From an uncultured Myxococcales bacterium (lineage in GTDB: Bacteria; Myxococcota_A; Polyangia; Polyangiales; Houyiibacteriaceae), in contig CALCTH010000409.1 in the NCBI GenBank assembly GCA_937893795.1, positions 1 to 61,330 of the forward strand: a stretch of DNA of 61,330 nucleotides, given 5' to 3'. Made by a program: the position numbers and the translations under genes. Positions 22,515 to 31,763 of the stretch are shown in pieces; positions within the stretch are counted from its first letter, which is position 1, and each line of letters begins with the position of its first letter. The notes beneath the pieces are model-generated. The model saw only the letters and a list, made by a program, of their open reading frames with translations. It ran no database searches and had not been told where the DNA came from.

Positions 22515-23864
22515 ATGAGACTTCGCTTCCTTTGCCTCGCCCTGGCCCTCACGGCCTGCGGTGACGACGACCGGATGGCCGGCCCCGACATGGGCGCCGA
22601 CCTCGGCGGGCCCGAGATGGGCGCCGACGGGTCCACCGACGCGGCCACGGACTCCGGTCTGGATCTCGGCCTCGACCTCGGCCCGCCGGTGGAGGTCAGC
22701 TACGGCTGCACCGACGACGTCGGCCTCGACCGCCCCCTCGAGGGCTGCGTCCCCGAGCGCCGCTGCCCCAACGTCGACCCGCTCCCCTTCACCATGGCGC
22801 GAGACGACGGCATGGAGCCGGACCCCTACCGAGAGGCGAGCCCGCTCCCGCTCTGCGAGTCCAACACCGCGGCCATCGAAGCTGGCCGCTTCGCCGTCTC
22901 CGACGGGGTGCCGCGCATGTACGACATCGACGGCGTCGAGCGCTACGCCTGCGTGGCCGAGCCCGAGGGGGGCGAGCCGGGTCGTCCCCGCGGCCTCGTC
23001 GTCTTCCTCCACGGCCTCGGTGGCTCGGCGCAGGACGTCTACCTCGAGACCAACCTTCGCTCGCAGGCGGAAGACCGACGCCTCGGGCCCCTGGGTACGC
23101 CGAGCGGGTTCTACCTGGTCTCGCTCCAGGCGCGGAACGTCCACGGGCCCAACGCGACGGACGGCCCGCACTGGGATCACACCTTTCGGGACCTCTACGC
23201 GGACGCTTTCGAGGGCGACACCATGAACCCCGACGTGCGCTACATCGACCGCGTCATCGACGCCGTCGTCGCCGACTTCGCGGGTGACGTCGATGACGAG
23301 CGCATCTACCTCGTCGGCTGGGACGACGGTGGCGAAATGGCCCTCTTCTACGGCCTGATTCGCCACGACACGCCGACGGCCGCGGGCAACCGGGTCGCCG
23401 CCGTGGTGACCTTGGGCGCCAAGGATCCCTTCGTGCACGAGGCCGAGACCGAGGAGTCCTGCGGGCTCATGACGCTCCCGACCTCGACGCTGCCGATTCA
23501 GTACATCACGCGAAGTTGCGACACGGTGGCCTGCGACACGAACCAGCTCATCGATCTCAACCGGGGGACCCCCGTGCAGCTGCCGCCGGGGAGCGACGCC
23601 GAGGTCTTCGTGCGTCGCCTCGAGGTCCAGGGCGCGAACGACAACGTCGAACGCATCATCCTCGGCCCGCGCAACGGTACGGTGCCCTGCGCGAGCTCGA
23701 GCGCTTGCTTCCGGCGCGCCGCCGACGACGAGCCCGACCGTGACGCCACCCGGCTCCATCGCCGCTGGATCGACAACGTAGGCAGCGAGACGAACAACGA
23801 CTTCGAGCCGAGGCTCCTCGACTTCCTCGCCGACAACCCGCTGCCCCTCGACGACGTGCGTTGA
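22515..23864 (+). CDS. Secreted lipoprotein, alpha/beta-hydrolase (LpqC/PHB-depolymerase-like esterase) fold with an atypical nucleophile elbow
   Basis: Lipobox 'LTACGDDD'. 'RGLVVFLHGLGGSAQDV' oxyanion-type segment. The elbow reads 'IYLVGWDDGGEMALFYG' (G-W-D-D-G at 23316-23330) where G-x-S-x-G is expected. Confidence 0.5.
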   Translation: MRLRFLCLALALTACGDDDRMAGPDMGADLGGPEMGADGSTDAATDSGLDLGLDLGPPVEVSYGCTDDVGLDRPLEGCVPERRCPNVDPLPFTMARDDGMEPDPYREASPLPLCESNTAAIEAGRFAVSDGVPRMYDIDGVERYACVAEPEGGEPGRPRGLVVFLHGLGGSAQDVYLETNLRSQAEDRRLGPLGTPSGFYLVSLQARNVHGPNATDGPHWDHTFRDLYADAFEGDTMNPDVRYIDRVIDAVVADFAGDVDDERIYLVGWDDGGEMALFYGLIRHDTPTAAGNRVAAVVTLGAKDPFVHEAETEESCGLMTLPTSTLPIQYITRSCDTVACDTNQLIDLNRGTPVQLPPGSDAEVFVRRLEVQGANDNVERIILGPRNGTVPCASSSACFRRAADDEPDRDATRLHRRWIDNVGSETNNDFEPRLLDFLADNPLPLDDVR

Positions 23865-23913: not shown

Positions 23914-25983
23914 TCAGGGCACGGTCACGGTGACCGAGTCGGTGCTGGTGCGGCCGAAGTCGTCGGTGACCTCGAGCGTATAGGTGGTGGTCGCGCCGGG
24001 CATCACGTCGAGCGTGCACTCGCTCCCCACGGTACCGGCGCCGTCGCTCCACGCGCAGGTGAGCGGCGGGACGCCGAGCTCGGCCCCGCCCTCGAGGGTG
24101 GTGCTCTCGCCCGCGGCGAGCGTCCGATCGTCGCCGGCCTCGGCCTGGTAGTCCGCCAGCGACGCCAGCCGGAAGTCCCCGAAGGCCACCTCCTGCTGGG
24201 AGTTGCTGAAGAACGCGAAGCCCCCGCGCGGATAGCTCGAGTCCGTCACGTCGAGGGTGGCGACGAGCGTCTCCGTCGACCCCGTCATCTCGTCGTCCTC
24301 GAAGACGAAGATCTTGGTGCGCGCTGGCGTGTAGAAGAACTCGAAGCGGTAGGTGATGAGGTCGCGCCAGCCGCCCGTGAACGCCCCCGGGTCCGCCGGG
24401 CTCACGAGGAAGATGGTGTCGTCGCTCAGGAGACCGGCGTCCGCCCGGTCCGTCGACCACGTGTCCGCGCAGAGCTGCACGTAGTCCGTGATGTTCAGGT
24501 CGCGCCCCATGTCGAAGGAGATGGTGTCCGGGGCGTCGAGGGCGCCGTCGATTTTCTTGATCGCGATGCCCGCCAGCGCGTTCCCGCAGGCGCCGCCGAG
24601 GCTCTGGTTCCGCTGCTTCCAGGACAGCAGATAGTACTGCGTCGGGTCGCGCCAGCCCCAGACGAAGCCGATGAGGTCGTCGTCGGACGTCGTCTCCACC
24701 GAGATGTTGCCCGTGATGCGCACGTTCTGAACGTCGAGGTCGCTCAGCACGATCGAGGGGTCGGCGTTGCGCACCTGCCGCCGCGCGGTGCCGGTTTCGT
24801 CGCAGACGTAGTTCGGGTTCGCCGGCGAGGGGAAGCTCTCGGCGTCGAGCACCACGACGTTCCAGCCGCAGAGCTGGGCGGGGCGGTCCACGACGAAGAC
24901 CGTGGCGCTGTCGGTGTTCGCCGCGCCGGTGCTCGTGTCCGTGACCGTGAGGAAGTACTGCGTGGTCGCTTCGGGCGTCACCGTCACGTCGCAGCTCTCG
25001 GCCAGGAGCGTGCCGTCGGAGAGGCGCCACTCGCAGGCGATGCAGCTCGTGTCGGCGCAGGATGCGCCGGCCCAGCTGCCGGAGAGGATGGCGCTCTCGC
25101 CGCCATTCACGTTGGCGTCGTCCCCGGCGTCCACGAGGAGCGGCACGACGGTGATCTCTGCGCGATCCGTCGCCATGAGGCCGGAGGCGTCGGTCACCGT
25201 GAGCGTGAAGACCGTGTCGGCGGCGACGGTGGCCGTCGTCGTGCATTCGGTGCTCACGGTCTCGTCCACGTCGTTGGTCCAGGCGCAATCGAAGCGGCCG
25301 TTGAAGCCGACGGCGCTTCCTTCGAGCGTGACGTCCGAGCCCATCACGATCTCCTGGTCCGGCCCCGCGAGCGCACGCAGCAGTGGGCACCCGTCGTCCT
25401 CGCAGAGCGAGCAGGTGAAGCCCGTCTCGGGTGCCGGTTGGTCCGTGCACGTGGTGCCGGCGAGGCAGGGCGCGTCGGCGCAGCCGTCGATGTCGGTGCA
25501 GGTGACGCCGTCGCCTTCGAGACCGCGGGGACAGGCGTCGCAGGTGAAGCCCGAGCCCGGCGCGGGCACGTCCATGCAGGCCACGCCTTCGAAGCAGGGC
25601 GCGTCGGCGCAGCCATCGACGTCCGCGCAGGCTTCGCCATCGCCGGCGGTTCCGTCGGGGCAGTCGCCGCAGCTGAAGCCGGTGCCCGGTGCGGGTACGT
25701 CCGTGCAGGCCACGCCGGTGAAGCAGGGCGCGCCGGCGCAGCCATCGATGTCGTCGCAGCTTCGGCCGTCGCCCTCGGTACCGTCCGGGCAGGCGTCGCA
25801 GGTGAAGCCTCCCTCGTCGTCGGGCACGCACGATCCCTCGACGAAGCAGGGGCGGTCGAGCACCTCGCAGGGGCTGAGCTCCTCCATGGGCCCGTCGTCT
25901 CCGCACCCGGCGAGCGACACGGCGAGGAGAAAAAGAGAGGCGGCGCGGGGCGCTGCCTGGCGAGGAAGGCGCAAACCGAGCAT
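23914..25983 (-). CDS. Thrombospondin-like lipoprotein: four EGF-like Cys-rich repeats, PKD-like modules and a TSP C-terminal (L-lectin-like) domain
   Basis: Lipobox 'LAGCGDDG'. The 43-aa repeats read 'C.D(I/V)DGCA.APC..G..C.D.PAPG.GF.C..CP.G..GDG..C'. 'AGPDQ/AGDD...TVTD' modules are PKD-like. 'SDDDLIGFVWGWRDPTQYYLLSWKQ', 'WRDLITYRFEFFYTPARTKIFVF' and 'GGFAFFSNSQQEVAFGDFRL' parallel human TSP-1 '[24 protein letters not shown]', '[23 protein letters not shown]' and '[21 protein letters not shown]' (from memory). Confidence 0.7.
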   Translation of the reverse strand: MLGLRLPRQAAPRAASLFLLAVSLAGCGDDGPMEELSPCEVLDRPCFVEGSCVPDDEGGFTCDACPDGTEGDGRSCDDIDGCAGAPCFTGVACTDVPAPGTGFSCGDCPDGTAGDGEACADVDGCADAPCFEGVACMDVPAPGSGFTCDACPRGLEGDGVTCTDIDGCADAPCLAGTTCTDQPAPETGFTCSLCEDDGCPLLRALAGPDQEIVMGSDVTLEGSAVGFNGRFDCAWTNDVDETVSTECTTTATVAADTVFTLTVTDASGLMATDRAEITVVPLLVDAGDDANVNGGESAILSGSWAGASCADTSCIACEWRLSDGTLLAESCDVTVTPEATTQYFLTVTDTSTGAANTDSATVFVVDRPAQLCGWNVVVLDAESFPSPANPNYVCDETGTARRQVRNADPSIVLSDLDVQNVRITGNISVETTSDDDLIGFVWGWRDPTQYYLLSWKQRNQSLGGACGNALAGIAIKKIDGALDAPDTISFDMGRDLNITDYVQLCADTWSTDRADAGLLSDDTIFLVSPADPGAFTGGWRDLITYRFEFFYTPARTKIFVFEDDEMTGSTETLVATLDVTDSSYPRGGFAFFSNSQQEVAFGDFRLASLADYQAEAGDDRTLAAGESTTLEGGAELGVPPLTCAWSDGAGTVGSECTLDVMPGATTTYTLEVTDDFGRTSTDSVTVTVP
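25387..25869 (-). repeat. Coding tandem repeat, period about 129 bp (43 aa), nearly 4 copies, encoding EGF-like modules
   Basis: Cys spacing repeats at C76/C119/C162 of the encoded protein, and the DNA copies are visibly similar (gcagccatcgacgtc / gcagccatcgatgtc / gcagccgtcgatgtc). Confidence 0.8.
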
Positions 25984-26029
25984 GCGCCATCATACCTTTG
26001 ACTACACGTTCCGTAATGGGGGGGGGCTT

Positions 26030-28597
26030 TCATAGGAGCTCGGCGAACTCCCCCACAGCCGCGCCGGCGCAGCCGAGGGCGACCCACACGCGGCCGGGCT
26101 GGTCCGGGTCTCCGAGGAGGTCGACGGGGAGCTGCGGCCTGCCGGCGGGGAAGGGGCCGAGGAAGACCCAGCGCGGCGCGGCCGCGTCGGCGTCGGGGGA
26201 GGCCCAGACGCCCGGGACGCCGCCCACGTAGCCGGCGAGGAAGAGCACGGGGTAGCCGGAGCCGCCCGGCGCGGGCGCGCCAAAGCCGAAGCGTGCGACC
26301 TCGCCGACGCCCGGTAGAGCTTCCAGCGTCTCGCCCTCGTCGAGGGAGCGGTAGAGCTTCCCCGGGCCCTCGACGCCGTCGGGCGGCGTCGGGCCGGAGC
26401 CGAGCCAAAGATGCCCGGTCACCGGCGACCGGAGCGTGACCCCGCCCCGCCACTCCTCCGGCGCGGGCGGTAGGCCGGCATGGACGCGGCGCCATTGCAC
26501 GCCGCCGTCCTCGCTCCGCCAGATGCCCTGGAGCTCCGGGTCATCGGAGCTGCTGAAGAAGCTGAACGTGCCGATCGCCTCCGGGTCAGCGACGACCACA
26601 CGCCGGTGACGCTGGGCGCCCTCGTGGATTCCACGCACGCGCGCCTCGGTCCAGGGCACGCCGAGGTCCATCGGCGTCCAGGTGGCGCCGCGGTCCCTCG
26701 TGACGAGCGGTGCGCGCTCGACGCCCTCCTCGCTCCCCGCCGGCACGAGCACGATGGCGTCGCGCCCCGCGTAGGCGAGCGTCGTCCCCGGGGCGCGGTC
26801 GAAGGGGAGCGTACCTTCGAAGCGCGTCCAGCTCGCGCCGTCGTCGCCCGACCAGCCGGAGCGAGCCACCTCGCCGCGCCCGTCCGCGAAGACGCGGGCG
26901 AGGAAGCGCGGGTCCTCCGACGAGCGGTCGAGGCCCCAGCCCGAGACGTCGATGTCGAAGCCGTCGACGACTGTTGGGTAGCCCGCGCCGTCCCGCGGGA
27001 GCTGCGCGTAGCCGAGCTCCTCGAGCACGGCGTGCACGTGCGAGGAGCCGGGCGGGAGGACCATGGCGTTCATGCAGGCCTGCTCGAGGCCCACGGCGTG
27101 CGTATCGACGGCGAGGTCGCCCGGGATCGCGGCGAAGGCCGCGTCGAAGTCGACGGACGCCACGCCGCGTGGCTCGCCGGTCACCCACACGCGACGCGTG
27201 ACCGGGTCGAGCAGCCACCCCGTCGTTGCGGCGTCGGCGCCCGCGGGCGCGTCGTGCCAGGGGATGCCGTCGGCACTCCTGAAGCGCGTTCGACCGAGCT
27301 GCTCCTCCGACCACGTGGCGCCGCGGTCCGTGCTCCGCGTGAAGTTCAGGTTCTGCTGCCGTCCCACGAGGATGCGTTCGCCGTCCACCGCGAAGCGGAG
27401 GTTGTTCGCGCCCGGTACCGGGAGCTCCATCCAGCTGCCCTCTTCGTAGCGCCACAGGCCGTTCTCCGAGACGTAGTAGGCGCCCCGCGCATCGAAGGCC
27501 GCCATGGTCGCGCGGCGGTCCGGTCCCCCCGCCGAAATGTCCGCGAAGGTCGCGCCGCCGTCCGTGCTGCGGAAGTAATCCGAGCCGGTGGACACGATGA
27601 CCTCCGAGGTGCGCCCCTCGGTCACGGGTGAGCTCCGGTTGAAGGCGACGCCCGCGAAGCCCCGCGGGTTGCCGCGAGGGCGGGGGAGGCTCTCGACCTC
27701 CGCCCACGTCGCGCCGCCGTCGACCGTGCGCCAGAGCCCCTCCTCGTCGCCCAGGAGCACGTGGTCGGGCGTGCGCGGGTCGATGGCGCCGTGGTGCTGC
27801 TGCCGCGCCGTCGTGCCCCGGGCGGCGGCGAAGGAGCGCTCCACCAGCACCGCCTCGAAGCTCGCGCCGCCGTCCCGGGAGCGGAAGAACACTCCGCCCT
27901 CGAGAGCGTCGCCGGTGTCGTAGGCGACGTAGATCACGTCGCTGTCGGATGGCGCGACGAGGACCTCGTACACGCCCGCGCCGTTCCACGGGAGGCGATA
28001 GCGCTCAGGCAGGTGGGCCGGCACGAGCGGGACGAAGCGGCCCGTTTCGTCGTCGTAGCGGGTGGCGCCGCTCGTCGTGCTGCGGAAGACCTTCGTCCCG
28101 TCGGCCGCGACGTCGCCACCGCTCACGACGCCTCCGCCGCCGAAGCGCGCGAGCTGCCAGCGGACGAGCCGGAGCGTGTAGACGCAGCCGGCGACGGGCT
28201 CCCCCGCCGCGTCCTCGAAGGTGACGCGATAGCGCGTCGCGTCGGCGTCGCCGGCCGCCGCGACCACGTAGTCCGCCACGCCGCCGGTCCCTGCGGCGAC
28301 CGTCTCGGCCTCGCCACGTTCCCAGCGCCAGCGGGTGCCTTGCGATGCCGTGGCGCGGCTCGCGATGCGGCCGCCTTCGGCCACGATGGGCCGGCCATTG
28401 AAGGTCGCGTGGCTCACGCCGCAGGTCGGCAGGCCGACGTCGCCCGGCACGCCATCGTCCGGAATCGCTGCGTCGCTTCCTGCGTCCGCGGGCGCTGCCG
28501 AGTCCCCGCCGCACGCCAACGCGAGGAGCAGTATCAGCCAACCTCGGCGCCGCAGGGACGTCGCGAAATCGGGCTCCGGGCGCGGCACCGGCTCCAC
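26030..28597 (-). CDS. Lipoprotein with a BNR/Asp-box repeat beta-propeller (sialidase/GH74/sortilin-VPS10-like architecture)
   Basis: Lipobox 'LALACGGD'. There are eight Asp-boxes (S-x-D-x-G-x-T-W type): 'RSRDGGASFE', 'RTVDGGATWAE', 'RSTDGGATFAD', 'RSTDRGATWSE', 'SGDDGASWTR', 'TRDRGATWTP', 'RSEDGGVQWRR' and 'RSLDEGETLEA'. Confidence 0.8.
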   Translation of the reverse strand: MEPVPRPEPDFATSLRRRGWLILLLALACGGDSAAPADAGSDAAIPDDGVPGDVGLPTCGVSHATFNGRPIVAEGGRIASRATASQGTRWRWERGEAETVAAGTGGVADYVVAAAGDADATRYRVTFEDAAGEPVAGCVYTLRLVRWQLARFGGGGVVSGGDVAADGTKVFRSTTSGATRYDDETGRFVPLVPAHLPERYRLPWNGAGVYEVLVAPSDSDVIYVAYDTGDALEGGVFFRSRDGGASFEAVLVERSFAAARGTTARQQHHGAIDPRTPDHVLLGDEEGLWRTVDGGATWAEVESLPRPRGNPRGFAGVAFNRSSPVTEGRTSEVIVSTGSDYFRSTDGGATFADISAGGPDRRATMAAFDARGAYYVSENGLWRYEEGSWMELPVPGANNLRFAVDGERILVGRQQNLNFTRSTDRGATWSEEQLGRTRFRSADGIPWHDAPAGADAATTGWLLDPVTRRVWVTGEPRGVASVDFDAAFAAIPGDLAVDTHAVGLEQACMNAMVLPPGSSHVHAVLEELGYAQLPRDGAGYPTVVDGFDIDVSGWGLDRSSEDPRFLARVFADGRGEVARSGWSGDDGASWTRFEGTLPFDRAPGTTLAYAGRDAIVLVPAGSEEGVERAPLVTRDRGATWTPMDLGVPWTEARVRGIHEGAQRHRRVVVADPEAIGTFSFFSSSDDPELQGIWRSEDGGVQWRRVHAGLPPAPEEWRGGVTLRSPVTGHLWLGSGPTPPDGVEGPGKLYRSLDEGETLEALPGVGEVARFGFGAPAPGGSGYPVLFLAGYVGGVPGVWASPDADAAAPRWVFLGPFPAGRPQLPVDLLGDPDQPGRVWVALGCAGAAVGEFAELL

Positions 28598-28695: not shown

Positions 28696-30297
28696 GTGCG
28701 CGGCTTGATCGCCCTCCTTTGCTGCGGTGTCGTCGTCGCCTGCGACGGCGTCATCGGCGACCCCCTCGCGGGCCTCGGTGGGCCGCGCGACGTCGACGAT
28801 CCGCGCGCGGTGATCGACCCGGCCAGGCTTCAGGACCCGCGTTTCGAGGCGCGCATCTGGCGCCTCAGCCCCGATCAGTACGTGCGTGAGTCGCAGCGTC
28901 TCTTCGGGCCCGGCGTACCGGCCGTGGAGCTCCCGGGGTCGGCCAGCGAGGACGGGCTGACGAACATCGCCGGCAACGCCCGCATCGACGCGGGGAGCGC
29001 CGCCCGCTTCCGCGACGCGGCCTCCATGCTCGCCCGCTGGGTCGTGTCGGAGCGCGCCACGCGCTGCGCCGACTGGGGCTCGCCCGCGTGCCGGGATGCG
29101 CTGCTCGGCTGGCTCCCGGACGAGGCGTTCCGCCGTCCGGCGACCGACGAGGAACGAAGCACGCTACGAGCACTCTTCGACCAGCTCGAGACTGGCTACG
29201 ACTTCGATTTCGCCGTCGAGGGCGTCGTCCGGGCCGTGCTTCTCGCCCCGGAGTTCCTCTACCGTACGGAGCTCGGCGAGCCCGGCGCGACCGGCGAGGT
29301 CGTCACGCTGGTGGGTCACGAGATCGCGAGCTTGCTCGCCTTCGGCATCACGGATCGCGCGCCGGACGCGGAGCTGCTCGCCGACGCCGCCCGGCTTGGC
29401 GACCCCGACGTGCGCGAGGCCCAGGCGCGCCGGCTCATGGCCGGGTCGGCGCCGGTGTGGGAGCGCTTCTTCTGGGAGTGGCTCGAGATGGCCACGCTCG
29501 AGAGCCAGGGCCAGGAGGTCGGCCTCTCGGATGCGCTCGTCGGCCAGATTCGCGAGGAGTACGCGACCTTCGTCGAGGAGATCATCGTGCGCGACCGGGG
29601 CACGCTCCGCGACCTGCTCTCGACGACGCGCAGCTGGACCCGTCCCGAGCTCGCCGCCTACTACGGCGCCGACCACCCGGGCGAGGGGGTGGCCGCCATC
29701 GAGCTCGACGCCACGCAGCGCGCCGGCCTGCTCACGCGCGGGGTCTGGCTCGTGAGCCACGGCAAGCGCGGCCGCGCGAACGTGGTGCGCCGCGGCATGG
29801 GCCTCTACCGCGACGCCATGTGCAACGACGTCACGCCCATCGACATCGACCTCGAGGAGGCCCTCGTGGAGCTGGTGGGGGAGGACGCCACCGTGCGTGA
29901 GATCGTCGAGGCCCGCGGCAACGACCCCACCTGCGGGGGCTGTCACGAGATCGCCGACCCCGTCGGCCTCGTGTTCGAGAGCTTCTCGGGTGACGGGCGC
30001 TGGCAGACGGAGTACGCGGACGGGCTGCCCGTCGAGCCGCAGATCGACCTGGAGCTCGGCAGCTTCGACAACGCGGCCGAGTTCTCCGCGGCGCTGGCCG
30101 ACGACCCGGCCTTCAAGCACTGCATGATCCAGCGCTTCGCCCACTTCCTGATGGGCATCGACGTCGGCAGCCCGCGGGCCATCCGCTGGACCTACGACGC
30201 GCTGGTCGATTTCGACGCGGCCGAGGGCTCCTTCGAGGAGCTCCTCGTGTCCATCGTCCGCCATCCCGCCTTCGTGGAGCGGCGGAGGGAGCCCTGA
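28696..30297 (+). CDS. DUF1587/DUF1595/DUF1592/DUF1588/DUF1585-type protein with a single CxxCH motif
   Basis: 'IWRLSPDQYVRE', 'DEAFRRPATDEE', 'VLLAPEFLYRTE', 'RAGLLTRGVWLVSH...VVRRGMGLY' and 'CGGCHEIADPVGLVFESFSGDGRWQ' follow the order of these domains as I recall them. Lipobox-like 'VVACDG'. Confidence 0.7.
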   Translation: MRGLIALLCCGVVVACDGVIGDPLAGLGGPRDVDDPRAVIDPARLQDPRFEARIWRLSPDQYVRESQRLFGPGVPAVELPGSASEDGLTNIAGNARIDAGSAARFRDAASMLARWVVSERATRCADWGSPACRDALLGWLPDEAFRRPATDEERSTLRALFDQLETGYDFDFAVEGVVRAVLLAPEFLYRTELGEPGATGEVVTLVGHEIASLLAFGITDRAPDAELLADAARLGDPDVREAQARRLMAGSAPVWERFFWEWLEMATLESQGQEVGLSDALVGQIREEYATFVEEIIVRDRGTLRDLLSTTRSWTRPELAAYYGADHPGEGVAAIELDATQRAGLLTRGVWLVSHGKRGRANVVRRGMGLYRDAMCNDVTPIDIDLEEALVELVGEDATVREIVEARGNDPTCGGCHEIADPVGLVFESFSGDGRWQTEYADGLPVEPQIDLELGSFDNAAEFSAALADDPAFKHCMIQRFAHFLMGIDVGSPRAIRWTYDALVDFDAAEGSFEELLVSIVRHPAFVERRREP

Positions 30298-30299
30298 GC

Positions 30300-31763
30300 A
30301 TGGCGATCTCTCGGCGAGACTTCGCGCGCCTGCTGGGCGCCTCGGCCCTGGGGGCCGGCCTCGTACCCTCCTTTCGCCGCGCGGGCGCGCAGGGGGCCAC
30401 GGCGCCGGTGCGCTTCTTGGCCATCCGCACGCCGCACGGCACGGACCGCGACTACTGGATCCCGCGGAACCCCGACGGCTCCGAGCCCGACGCCGACGCG
30501 CCGCTGCGCGGGCTGATGTTCGCCTACGAGAACTCGATGCTCGACCCGCTCGCCCCGTGGGCGGACCAGGTCACGATCCTCGACGGCCTCGACACGCAGG
30601 TCGTGAAGGAAGGAACGCGCGGCGGGCTCCGCACGGCGCACGGGCACAACGAGCAAGGTACGTTGCTCACCGGGGCGCAGGCACCGGCCAACCGTGAAGG
30701 CTTCTTCGACGGCCACCCGTCGCTCGACTTTTTCCTGCATGGTCGGTTCGGCGCGCCGGCGCTCATCACGGCGAGCGTTCAGCCAACGGGCAGCTGGAAG
30801 TGCATGAGCTACGACGACGGCGGCCGGCCCCGCCCGCCCGAGCACGACCCGCGGAGCGTCTTCCGTGTGGTCTTCCCGAGCGACTTCGCGCCGCCGGACC
30901 CCGAGGAGCCGGTCGGCGACTTCACGGCGGGCGAGCAGGCCATCGACGCCTTCGGCGCGGCGCGCCTCGAGCGGCTTCGCGCGCGGCTCCGCGGCAGCGA
31001 GCGCGAGAAGATCGATGCGCACCTGGCGGCGATGAGCGCGCTGACCCCCGGCGGCGGCATGCCGCCCGGCACGACGGCTTCCTGCACGACGCGCGGTACG
31101 GACGTGCCGAGCCGCGACGGCCGCATCGACGATTGGAGCGAGGTCCGGGAGGTGACGCGCGTGCACGCGCAGGTCATCGCCCAGGCCTTCGCCTGCGGGC
31201 GCTCGCGCTGCGCGACGCTGCAGATCCTGAACGACTTCCCGAACTTCTATACGGACGTGCCTGGCGTCCGCACGTCGGGCATTCGCGCGCGCTACGGCGA
31301 CACCTTCCGCTTCCACGAGAACCTCGTGCACGACTACTGGTCCGCGCGCGGCTCCGAGCAGGAGACGCTGCGCGTGGGCTACGCGACGGGGCAGCGCTGG
31401 GCCGCGGGGCACTTCGCCGCGGTGCTCGAAGAGCTCGAGGCCATGCCGGACCCCTTCGACCCGGCGGGGGGCTCGATCCTCGATAATACCGTGGTGTTCT
31501 GGCACAACGAGTTCGGCCACGACGGGCACGACCGGCAGGAGACGCGACACCCGACCGTCATCGCCGGCGGCGGTGGTCGCGTGCTCCGGCTGGGTCGCTA
31601 CCTGCGGCTCCGGAACATCAACTCGAGCGAGCGCGTCCCGCACAACCGCCTGCTCGTGAGCCTCTGCCACGCGGTAGGCCTCACGGACATCGACCACTTC
31701 GGCGACCGCGACCTCGTGGACGACCCCGCCTACCGCGGCCCCCTCGCCCCCCTCATGGCCTGA
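30300..31763 (+). CDS. DUF1552-type protein with a twin-arginine signal
   Basis: 'MAISRRDFARLLGASALGAGL' is a Tat signal. 'LDNTVVFWHNEFGHDGHDRQETRHPTVIAGGGG' resembles the DUF1552 C-terminal region. It starts 2 nt after the upstream stop, and the pairing with a DUF1592/1588 gene is classical. Confidence 0.65.
   Translation: MAISRRDFARLLGASALGAGLVPSFRRAGAQGATAPVRFLAIRTPHGTDRDYWIPRNPDGSEPDADAPLRGLMFAYENSMLDPLAPWADQVTILDGLDTQVVKEGTRGGLRTAHGHNEQGTLLTGAQAPANREGFFDGHPSLDFFLHGRFGAPALITASVQPTGSWKCMSYDDGGRPRPPEHDPRSVFRVVFPSDFAPPDPEEPVGDFTAGEQAIDAFGAARLERLRARLRGSEREKIDAHLAAMSALTPGGGMPPGTTASCTTRGTDVPSRDGRIDDWSEVREVTRVHAQVIAQAFACGRSRCATLQILNDFPNFYTDVPGVRTSGIRARYGDTFRFHENLVHDYWSARGSEQETLRVGYATGQRWAAGHFAAVLEELEAMPDPFDPAGGSILDNTVVFWHNEFGHDGHDRQETRHPTVIAGGGGRVLRLGRYLRLRNINSSERVPHNRLLVSLCHAVGLTDIDHFGDRDLVDDPAYRGPLAPLMA

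Follow-up and report, generated by a model that had tools for sequence, protein, structure and literature searches.

In canonical thrombospondins, epidermal growth factor (EGF) repeats, type 3 repeats and an L-lectin domain form one unit, the signature region, and retention in the matrix is governed by a calcium-coordinating DDD motif (PMC6526912). The literature on the evolution of the extracellular matrix (ECM) regards the L-lectin-like domain, TSP_C, as an animal or choanozoan innovation, and the DDD motif has been proposed to have first arisen in the metazoan ancestor (PMC6526912, PMC6792448). The TSP_C domain family is known and automated annotation tags proteins of the kind described below; no studies of bacterial TSP_C proteins were found in the literature, only passing annotations. 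The cellulosome-associated protein Ccel_1543 of Ruminiclostridium cellulolyticum is annotated as S-TSP_C-(fn3)4-CBM. In Myxococcus xanthus, CglD is an integrin-like surface lipoprotein that stabilises gliding focal adhesions (bioRxiv 10.1101/2023.10.19.562135). Here we analyse a stretch of 61,330 nucleotides (the window; positions 1 to 61,330 of contig CALCTH010000409.1, assembly GCA_937893795.1) from an uncultured Myxococcales bacterium, in which a minus-strand gene (23914-25983) encodes a predicted lipoprotein with EGF-like repeats and a TSP_C domain, hereafter the TSP_C lipoprotein. Two things are new: the combination, in a Myxococcota-restricted family, of a lipobox and thrombospondin-type EGF-like repeats with an expanded TSP_C that has two PKD modules before it and one after it, and the documented breadth of bacterial TSP_C domains that carry the DDD motif.

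The gene was called as an open reading frame (ORF) of 689 amino acids (aa) with an ATG start. Inspection of the sequence identified a signal peptide (25903-25983 (-)) ending in a canonical lipobox, L-A-G-C27, the Cys of which is invariant in an alignment of 28 family sequences. The lipobox Cys is followed by four EGF-like modules, two PKD modules, TSP_C and a terminal PKD module, in this order. The full-length AlphaFold model has a mean predicted local distance difference test score (pLDDT) of 89.5 and a predicted template modelling score (pTM) of 0.77, with residues 1-31 at a pLDDT below 50. By its conserved lipobox the protein is a bacterial lipoprotein, lipidation and localisation being predicted features. 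NCBIfam assigns it to no family, and a search of the window revealed no further TSP_C or EGF-repeat genes.

The TSP_C domain (aa 365-612; 24148-24891 (-)) is recognised by Pfam PF05735 with a score of 64.5 bits (E = 1.5e-17; gathering cut-off 25.6), in two stretches that are broken by a loop expansion; the Pfam scan of the protein reported no other concanavalin-like family. A phmmer search of all PDB sequences with this region matched TSP-2, COMP and TSP-1 exclusively, and a profile built from 21 family members recovered TSP-1 (1.7e-19), TSP-2 (4e-19) and COMP (3e-15) from the PDB and nothing else. The AlphaFold model of aa 365-612 (pLDDT 93.9, pTM 0.92) has as its top four Foldseek matches in the PDB the thrombospondin and COMP structures 2RHP, 1YO8, 3FBY and 1UX6 (E 6e-16 to 6e-15, TM score 0.68-0.72); nine orders of magnitude away in E-value comes the next fold, CBM66 (1.6e-6), followed by L-type/legume lectins. 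Identity of the domain to human thrombospondins is 21-25%, and its motifs, including DDD..GF.[FW]G[YW] and W[KR]D.t.YR, are collinear with theirs. We conclude that this region of roughly 245 aa is a true TSP_C domain by sequence and fold, not a generic LamG/ConA domain.

Within the family, sequence identity is 48-76% (28 aligned sequences). The DDD motif (D434-D436; 24676-24684 (-)) is invariant in this alignment and is aligned with D1001-D1003 of TSP-1, and likewise with the DDD of TSP-2 and COMP. A loop specific to the family (aa 484-536; 24376-24534 (-)), delimited by profile comparison and the model, is expanded by approximately 25 residues relative to human thrombospondins: positions 120-172 of the family profile are unmatched in the human proteins, which carry about 28 residues there, and other bacterial TSP_C domains fill a median of 25 of the 53 columns. 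AlphaFold predicts two short helices and strands in the loop. There are two family-invariant Cys pairs, C372/C394 and C466/C505, and C505 sits in the expanded loop.

The Cys-rich region (aa 36-199; 25387-25878 (-)), located by regular expression and hidden Markov model (HMM) scans, consists of four six-Cys units with a 43-aa period that start at residues 36, 79, 122 and 165 and score 32.7, 60.4, 68.3 and 32.8 bits, respectively, on the family repeat HMM, the fourth unit being C-terminally shortened. A profile built on 29 repeats of the family matched Notch1 (1.5e-12), DLL1 (1.3e-11) and TSP-2 (1.5e-8) in the PDB, the Notch1 and DLL1 values being sums over several domains. The best single-domain match is EGF-2 of TSP-2, at 37.7 bits and with the full repeat covered, versus at most 24.7 bits for single Notch or DLL1 EGF domains among the alignments listed. 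In line with this profile match, phmmer aligned residues 78-159 of the protein to residues 2-83 of TSP-2, and the spacing C-x4-C-x5-C-x11-C-x2-C-x10-C together with the tail 'CP.G..GDG..C' mirrors 'CLSNPCFPGAQC..SWSCGFCPVGFLGNGTHC' of TSP-2. On the TSP_C lipoprotein alone, the Pfam EGF and cEGF models reach 16.0 and 17.7 bits, under their cut-offs. Judged by these alignments, the repeats are EGF-like and of the thrombospondin EGF-2 subtype with its C4-x-x-C5 spacing. The same repeat is found at 55-65% identity in many Myxococcota proteins that carry no TSP_C (they have FG-GAP, LTD, PPC or LRR domains); it is a mobile module in Myxococcota.

Three PKD/Ig-like modules complete the protein. Pfam K319L-like_PKD (PF22352) matches in three stretches at 39.1 bits (cut-off 27), and AlphaFold places beta-sandwiches at about 203-280, 283-364 and 615-687. 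Module 1 (aa 203-280; 25144-25377 (-)) is defined by the K319L-like_PKD stretch 206-279 and the strands of the model, and module 2 (aa 283-364; 24892-25137 (-)) by its Pfam stretch and beta-sandwich; a PKD_4 stretch at 284-364 stays under its cut-off (23.7 bits versus 27). Module 3 (aa 613-689; 23917-24147 (-)) has a Pfam stretch, strands at 628-687 in the model and a weak match to a collagenase PKD domain at 645-688. An earlier note, made from the sequence of the window alone, had described much of this composition, and these parts of it hold: the four 43-aa six-Cys repeats were recovered by both kinds of scan, and they are EGF-like by the profile search of the PDB rather than an unrelated bacterial repeat; the three PKD-like modules have Pfam and model support; the three TSP_C-like blocks that the note quoted are present in the translation, and the human TSP-1 strings given beside them match the aligned 1UX6 sequence. 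Its proposal of a TSP_C likeness is borne out by the Pfam profile and by the thrombospondin and COMP structures at the top of the Foldseek search, and the calcium-binding Asp residues whose retention it had raised are kept throughout the family as the DDD motif. Overall, we are highly confident that the domain assignments of the TSP_C lipoprotein are correct.

This composition does not make the protein a thrombospondin, because the type 3 calcium-binding repeats are absent: Pfam reported no TSP_3 or TSP3_bac match at E <= 1, and the motifs D.D.DG..D..D.C and D.D.D[GN]..D have no match in the sequence. Two PKD modules occupy the position of the type 3 'wire' between the EGF array and TSP_C, and TSP_C is not C-terminal, a PKD module of 77 aa coming after it. 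There is no room for a coiled coil or an N-terminal domain between Cys27 and the first EGF-like unit at residue 36, and the model contains no long helix. The TSP_C lipoprotein thus has two of the three module types of the signature region, and the metazoan signature architecture that the earlier note had seen in it does not stand.

Full-length relatives form 37 clusters at 90% identity, 36 of which carry a precomputed PF05735 annotation; all 37 are labelled 'hypothetical protein' or are nameless. The relatives with an organism name all come from metagenome-assembled genomes (MAGs) of Myxococcota or 'Deltaproteobacteria', and the rest from metagenomes. GTDB data with one genome per species hold the full-length family in 10 species, all of them Myxococcota MAGs, the closest at 75% identity. 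The full-length family is found only in Myxococcota and is uncharacterised. In two of its members (P0035 and P0036, of 943 and 928 aa), most of the EGF array gives way to another N-terminal region, about 550 aa in length, while the last EGF-like unit is still there, as are the PKD modules and TSP_C.

The TSP_C domain itself extends far beyond this family. Among the representatives of 50%-identity clusters, the family TSP_C profile had 1667 matches at E <= 1e-3, 687 of them at E <= 1e-10, and the matches with a named source are bacterial (Orenia, Verrucomicrobiales, Candidatus Binatia). A genome scan detected TSP_C at 25-30% identity across more than 12 bacterial phyla. The groups represented include Planctomycetota, Bacteroidota (Aequorivita isolates), Verrucomicrobiota and Acidobacteriota; Alpha-, Beta- and Gammaproteobacteria, including isolates of Oceanicella, Pseudooceanicola, Neptunomonas and Psychromonas; and Chloroflexota, Cyanobacteria, Actinomycetota, Calditrichia, Chlorobiota, Rhodothermales and Desulfobacterota, together with one Thermoplasmata MAG. 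The Pfam TSP_C cut-off was passed by all ten sampled proteins and all ten sampled genome loci, which come from different phyla; the top bacterial score was 102 bits (a Planctomycetota MAG), versus 64.5 for the window protein. The TSP_C-like domain on the contig assigned to the Thermoplasmata archaeon MAG (JAEHCK010000136.1; L078:3447-3989 (+)) only just clears the cut-off, with 30.4 bits versus 25.6.

The DDD motif is kept in 137 of 150 TSP_C domains from outside the family, and their consensus, DDD..GFVFGYQD...FYLFDWKQ, is nearer to the human sequence than that of the window family. A profile of these domains gives human TSP-1, TSP-2 and COMP 131-136 bits. When the 186 retrieved domains are ordered by BLAST similarity to the same three proteins, the window family comes only at about rank 100-120, in a comparison by BLAST ranks and profile scores that has aligned fragments of the three human sequences as its reference; BLAST identity to TSP-1 and TSP-2 is 23-25% for the window family and 32-35% for several apparently bacterial domains. 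By these sequence comparisons the TSP_C domain of the window belongs to a large, multi-phylum bacterial population and is not especially close to the animal domains, and TSP_C with its DDD motif is not confined to Holozoa, in contrast to the assumption made in work on ECM evolution.

One of the retrieved representatives stands apart. P0075 (L087:1131-3380 (+), Logan SRR18067319) is an ORF of 749 aa on a 4-kb contig with three tandem TSP_C domains that share 40-42% identity with human TSP-1 and TSP-2, including 'LKLVNSTTGP...ALW.T.DTPNQVK.LW', and with another TSP_C fragment upstream. The contig probably represents eukaryotic DNA within the metagenome, and because the protein looks eukaryotic, the list of the top 150 representatives is not purely bacterial. 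Five further proteins (P0131, P0136, P0181, P0190 and P0202) make up a second bacterial lipoprotein family with, in this order, acidic Cys repeats, a PKD-like module and a C-terminal TSP_C. Its tandem repeat, 'C..D.D.DG[WFY]GD...PG.DCDD....FPGAAE', is of the DxDxDGxGD type, and its module order resembles that of thrombospondin type 3 repeats plus TSP_C. P0142, a separate protein, has eight Pfam Cu-binding_MopE stretches, one TSP3_bac and two TSP_C domains.

We consider it reasonably likely that the gene at 23914-25983 (-) encodes a stand-alone, calcium-dependent ligand-binding surface lipoprotein of this Myxococcota-only family; whether it serves as an adhesin or lectin we regard as an even call. 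The protein would be exported, lipidated and shown on the cell surface, where a rigid, disulfide-bonded stalk of EGF-like and PKD modules would keep the TSP_C head off the membrane. The calcium-loaded head may then bind a glycan or a matrix polymer in a calcium-dependent manner, and it is such binding that would make the protein an adhesin or a lectin; its target could be the cell's own surface or matrix, or else a substrate or prey. A surface location is favoured by the conserved lipobox and by a design akin to that of other surface Ig-repeat proteins and of CglD. Several points weigh against this proposal. The ligand, the calcium dependence and the surface exposure are matters that we infer, and the bacterial TSP_C population is uncharacterised; all members of the family are known from MAGs or metagenomes only; the protein could remain periplasmic rather than be displayed on the surface; and the role of the DDD motif could be purely structural. 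Moreover, a spacer of 46 nt with no terminator-like site is compatible with co-transcription, in this genome, with the gene upstream.

This upstream gene (26030-28597 (-)), separated from the TSP_C gene by the 46-nt spacer (25984-26029 (-)), is an ORF of 855 aa with a GTG start, identified by PDB matches as a GH74-like double beta-propeller lipoprotein. It matches PDB 2CN3 at 9e-26 and 4LGN at 8.7e-20, with alignments that span both propellers. Similarly to these GH74 xyloglucanases (Xgh74A of C. thermocellum, 2CN3, and that of A. cellulolyticus, 4LGN), it has a tandem beta-propeller with Asp-boxes; unlike them, it lacks both catalytic Asp residues, carries a lipoprotein signal and has an extra N-terminal region of about 110 aa. 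The Asp-boxes lie at residues 240, 291, 344, 422, 583, 633, 695 and 751; five of the eight are strict S-x-D-x-G-x-[TS]-[WFL] motifs, and all eight are recovered when the first and seventh positions are relaxed. The relatives of the protein are widespread bacterial BNR-repeat proteins, some of them named xyloglucan-specific exo-beta-1,4-glucanase and others equipped with RICIN or cellulose-binding modules. Pfam gives a BNR match and a borderline, partial match to Sortilin-Vps10 (34.3 bits versus a cut-off of 33, the best stretch covering profile positions 6-114 of 446), while the similarity to GH74 is far greater; NCBIfam yields sub-threshold matches only. On this evidence we regard the protein as a bacterial double propeller of ordinary kind rather than an ECM-like one of animal type.

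The catalytic Asp pair of GH74 (D70 and D480 of Xgh74A) is replaced in the window copy by T174 (28076-28078) and E527 (27017-27019), whereas Asp is present at both positions in all 14 aligned homologues and in Xgh74A. These substitutions make it probable that the window copy is a non-catalytic derivative, confined to this genome. The N-terminal sequence 'RRRGWLILLLALAC29' contains a relaxed lipobox, 'LLLALAC29', and the homologues P0227-P0229 and P0231 also have lipoboxes. A public gene call of 806 aa (P0225) begins 49 codons further in than the GTG at 28597 and so loses the segment 28451-28597 (-), with the signal peptide and the lipobox. This call was rejected; the 855-aa ORF is preferred because the homologues carry lipoboxes.

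On the other flank, a convergent gene downstream (22515-23864 (+)), whose stop codon lies 49 nt from that of the TSP_C gene, encodes a predicted lipoprotein of 449 aa ('LALALTAC') with no Pfam family at E <= 0.001. Divergently upstream of the propeller gene (28696-31763 (+)) are genes for a DUF1595/DUF1592/DUF1588/DUF1585 protein (533 aa) and, directly after it, a DUF1552 (HXXSHH) protein (487 aa); no link was found between this pair and the two lipoprotein genes.

Conservation of the gene neighbourhood was assessed with gene tables for four homologues, with tblastn of five window neighbours against 86 loci, and with all-against-all clustering of flanking ORFs over 13 loci. The GH74-like protein had no tblastn match in any of the 86 loci, and its gene stands beside none of the 12 other family loci, those of relatives at 76% and 70% identity included. 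No conserved neighbour of the TSP_C gene emerged over the 13 family loci; local synteny is shared among close relatives only, apart from a generic Ser/Thr kinase family. The pairing of the TSP_C and GH74-like genes is specific to this genome.

The alternatives to a stand-alone surface lipoprotein differ in how much of the evidence they can accommodate. The concanavalin-type fold class is very common and the identity of the domain to human thrombospondins is low (21-24%), so that the TSP_C-like region might be taken for a generic concanavalin/LamG-type jelly roll that resembles thrombospondins by chance or convergence. This explanation is effectively refuted: TSP_C is the sole concanavalin-like family that Pfam assigns, TSP-1, TSP-2 and COMP are all that a profile search of the PDB yields, a 1e9-fold gap in Foldseek E-value separates the TSP/COMP structures from the next fold, and the collinear motifs include DDD..GF.[FW]G[YW] and W[KR]D.t.YR. 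Horizontal transfer of a thrombospondin-like adhesin from animals, or its direct descent from an ancestral thrombospondin, with EGF plus TSP_C as the metazoan signature, was the inference of the earlier note. It could draw on the presence of two separate thrombospondin modules (the EGF-2-type repeat and TSP_C) in one protein, on the DDD motif kept in the window family and on a literature that places TSP_C as a choanozoan or metazoan domain; against it, type 3 repeats are missing and PKD modules stand between the EGF array and TSP_C, the latter domain is spread across many bacterial phyla, the identity of the window family to human thrombospondins (23-25%) falls short of that of several apparently bacterial domains (32-35%), as does its Pfam score of that of a Planctomycetota domain, and the occurrence of the same EGF-like repeat in many Myxococcota proteins without TSP_C fits local domain shuffling. 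A recent transfer from animals to this family is disfavoured because TSP_C is multi-phylum and the window family is not the closest to the human proteins, and we hold the whole scenario to be very improbable.

A functional polysaccharide operon, in which the propeller and a TSP_C lectin act jointly on beta-glucan or exopolysaccharide, fares somewhat better and is still improbable. The adjacency described in the earlier note is real: two lipoprotein genes lie in the same direction on the minus strand with 46 nt between them. A promoter and terminator scan showed neither a terminator-like nor a sigma-70-like site in the spacer and nothing informative around it. Xyloglucan is the substrate of GH74 enzymes, the TSP_C fold is nearest, after thrombospondins, to CBM66 and L-type lectins, and the R. 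cellulolyticum protein cited above, which combines TSP_C with a CBM, is cellulosome-associated. Nevertheless, none of the 12 other family loci has the GH74-like gene on its flanks, and T and E stand in the window copy where every aligned homologue keeps a catalytic Asp; the comparative evidence gives no support to an operon or a functional pair. What survives of the thrombospondin-like reading of this locus is the TSP_C and EGF homology, together with the gene pair and its eight Asp-boxes as described, and what falls away is the signature architecture, the animal transfer, the animal-ECM-like character of the propeller and the adhesin operon. The stand-alone surface lipoprotein thus remains our preferred reading, and two 'hypothetical' genes of the window are better annotated, with the operon and animal-transfer claims removed.

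A further, bolder idea is that the building blocks of thrombospondins (an EGF-2-type module, acidic calcium-binding Cys repeats and a TSP_C with DDD) existed in bacteria before animals, and that the holozoan TSP_C derives from a bacterial one. We consider this rather unlikely, yet it gains support from the second bacterial lipoprotein family, because acidic Cys repeats, a PKD-like module and a C-terminal TSP_C occur there in one protein. If it were true, the Myxococcota family would be a living bacterial surface protein of the EGF-plus-TSP_C kind, and DDD-mediated matrix retention could have a counterpart in the matrix-building Myxococcota. Given a proper phylogeny, this wide bacterial spread of TSP_C could alter the view of where a core ECM domain arose, and bacterial TSP_C proteins would offer tractable models for what the TSP_C lectin fold binds.

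Compared with known systems, the TSP_C lipoprotein has most in common at the domain level with metazoan thrombospondins and COMP (1UX6, 1YO8, 3FBY): the TSP_C fold (TM score about 0.7), the collinear motifs and DDD, EGF-2-subtype modules (C4-x-x-C5, 'CP.G..G.G..C') upstream of TSP_C, and an extracellular, disulfide-rich design. Unlike these proteins, it has no type 3 'wire', coiled coil, N-terminal domain, TSR or vWC; it is bacterial and lipid-anchored, with PKD modules replacing the type 3 repeats and a third PKD module after TSP_C, and its domain has two Cys pairs specific to the family and a loop that is about 25 residues longer. With other bacterial TSP_C proteins, which include giant Ig-repeat proteins, short secreted proteins of 250-400 aa and Ccel_1543 of R. 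cellulolyticum, it shares the Pfam family, a secreted or surface location and the frequent company of Ig-like, PKD or fn3 repeats; in contrast to them, the Myxococcota family pairs TSP_C with thrombospondin-type EGF repeats and has a loop expansion, while most of the other domains have no insert and are nearer to the animal consensus (GFVFGYQ...FY...WKQ). In the full-length model, the nearest structures after thrombospondins are bacterial surface Ig-repeat proteins (GhpA of Aureispira and Bacteroides surface lipoproteins).

In design, the closest characterised myxobacterial analogue appears to be CglD, a comparison made by description only. Similarly to the TSP_C lipoprotein, CglD is a myxobacterial surface lipoprotein of animal-ECM-like modules, with a Cys-rich, EGF-like stalk and a region matched to the COMP signature. 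What sets it apart is a VWA domain together with type 3-like DxDxDG repeats that bind calcium; no TSP_C is reported for it, whereas the TSP_C lipoprotein carries TSP_C and neither type 3-like repeats nor VWA.

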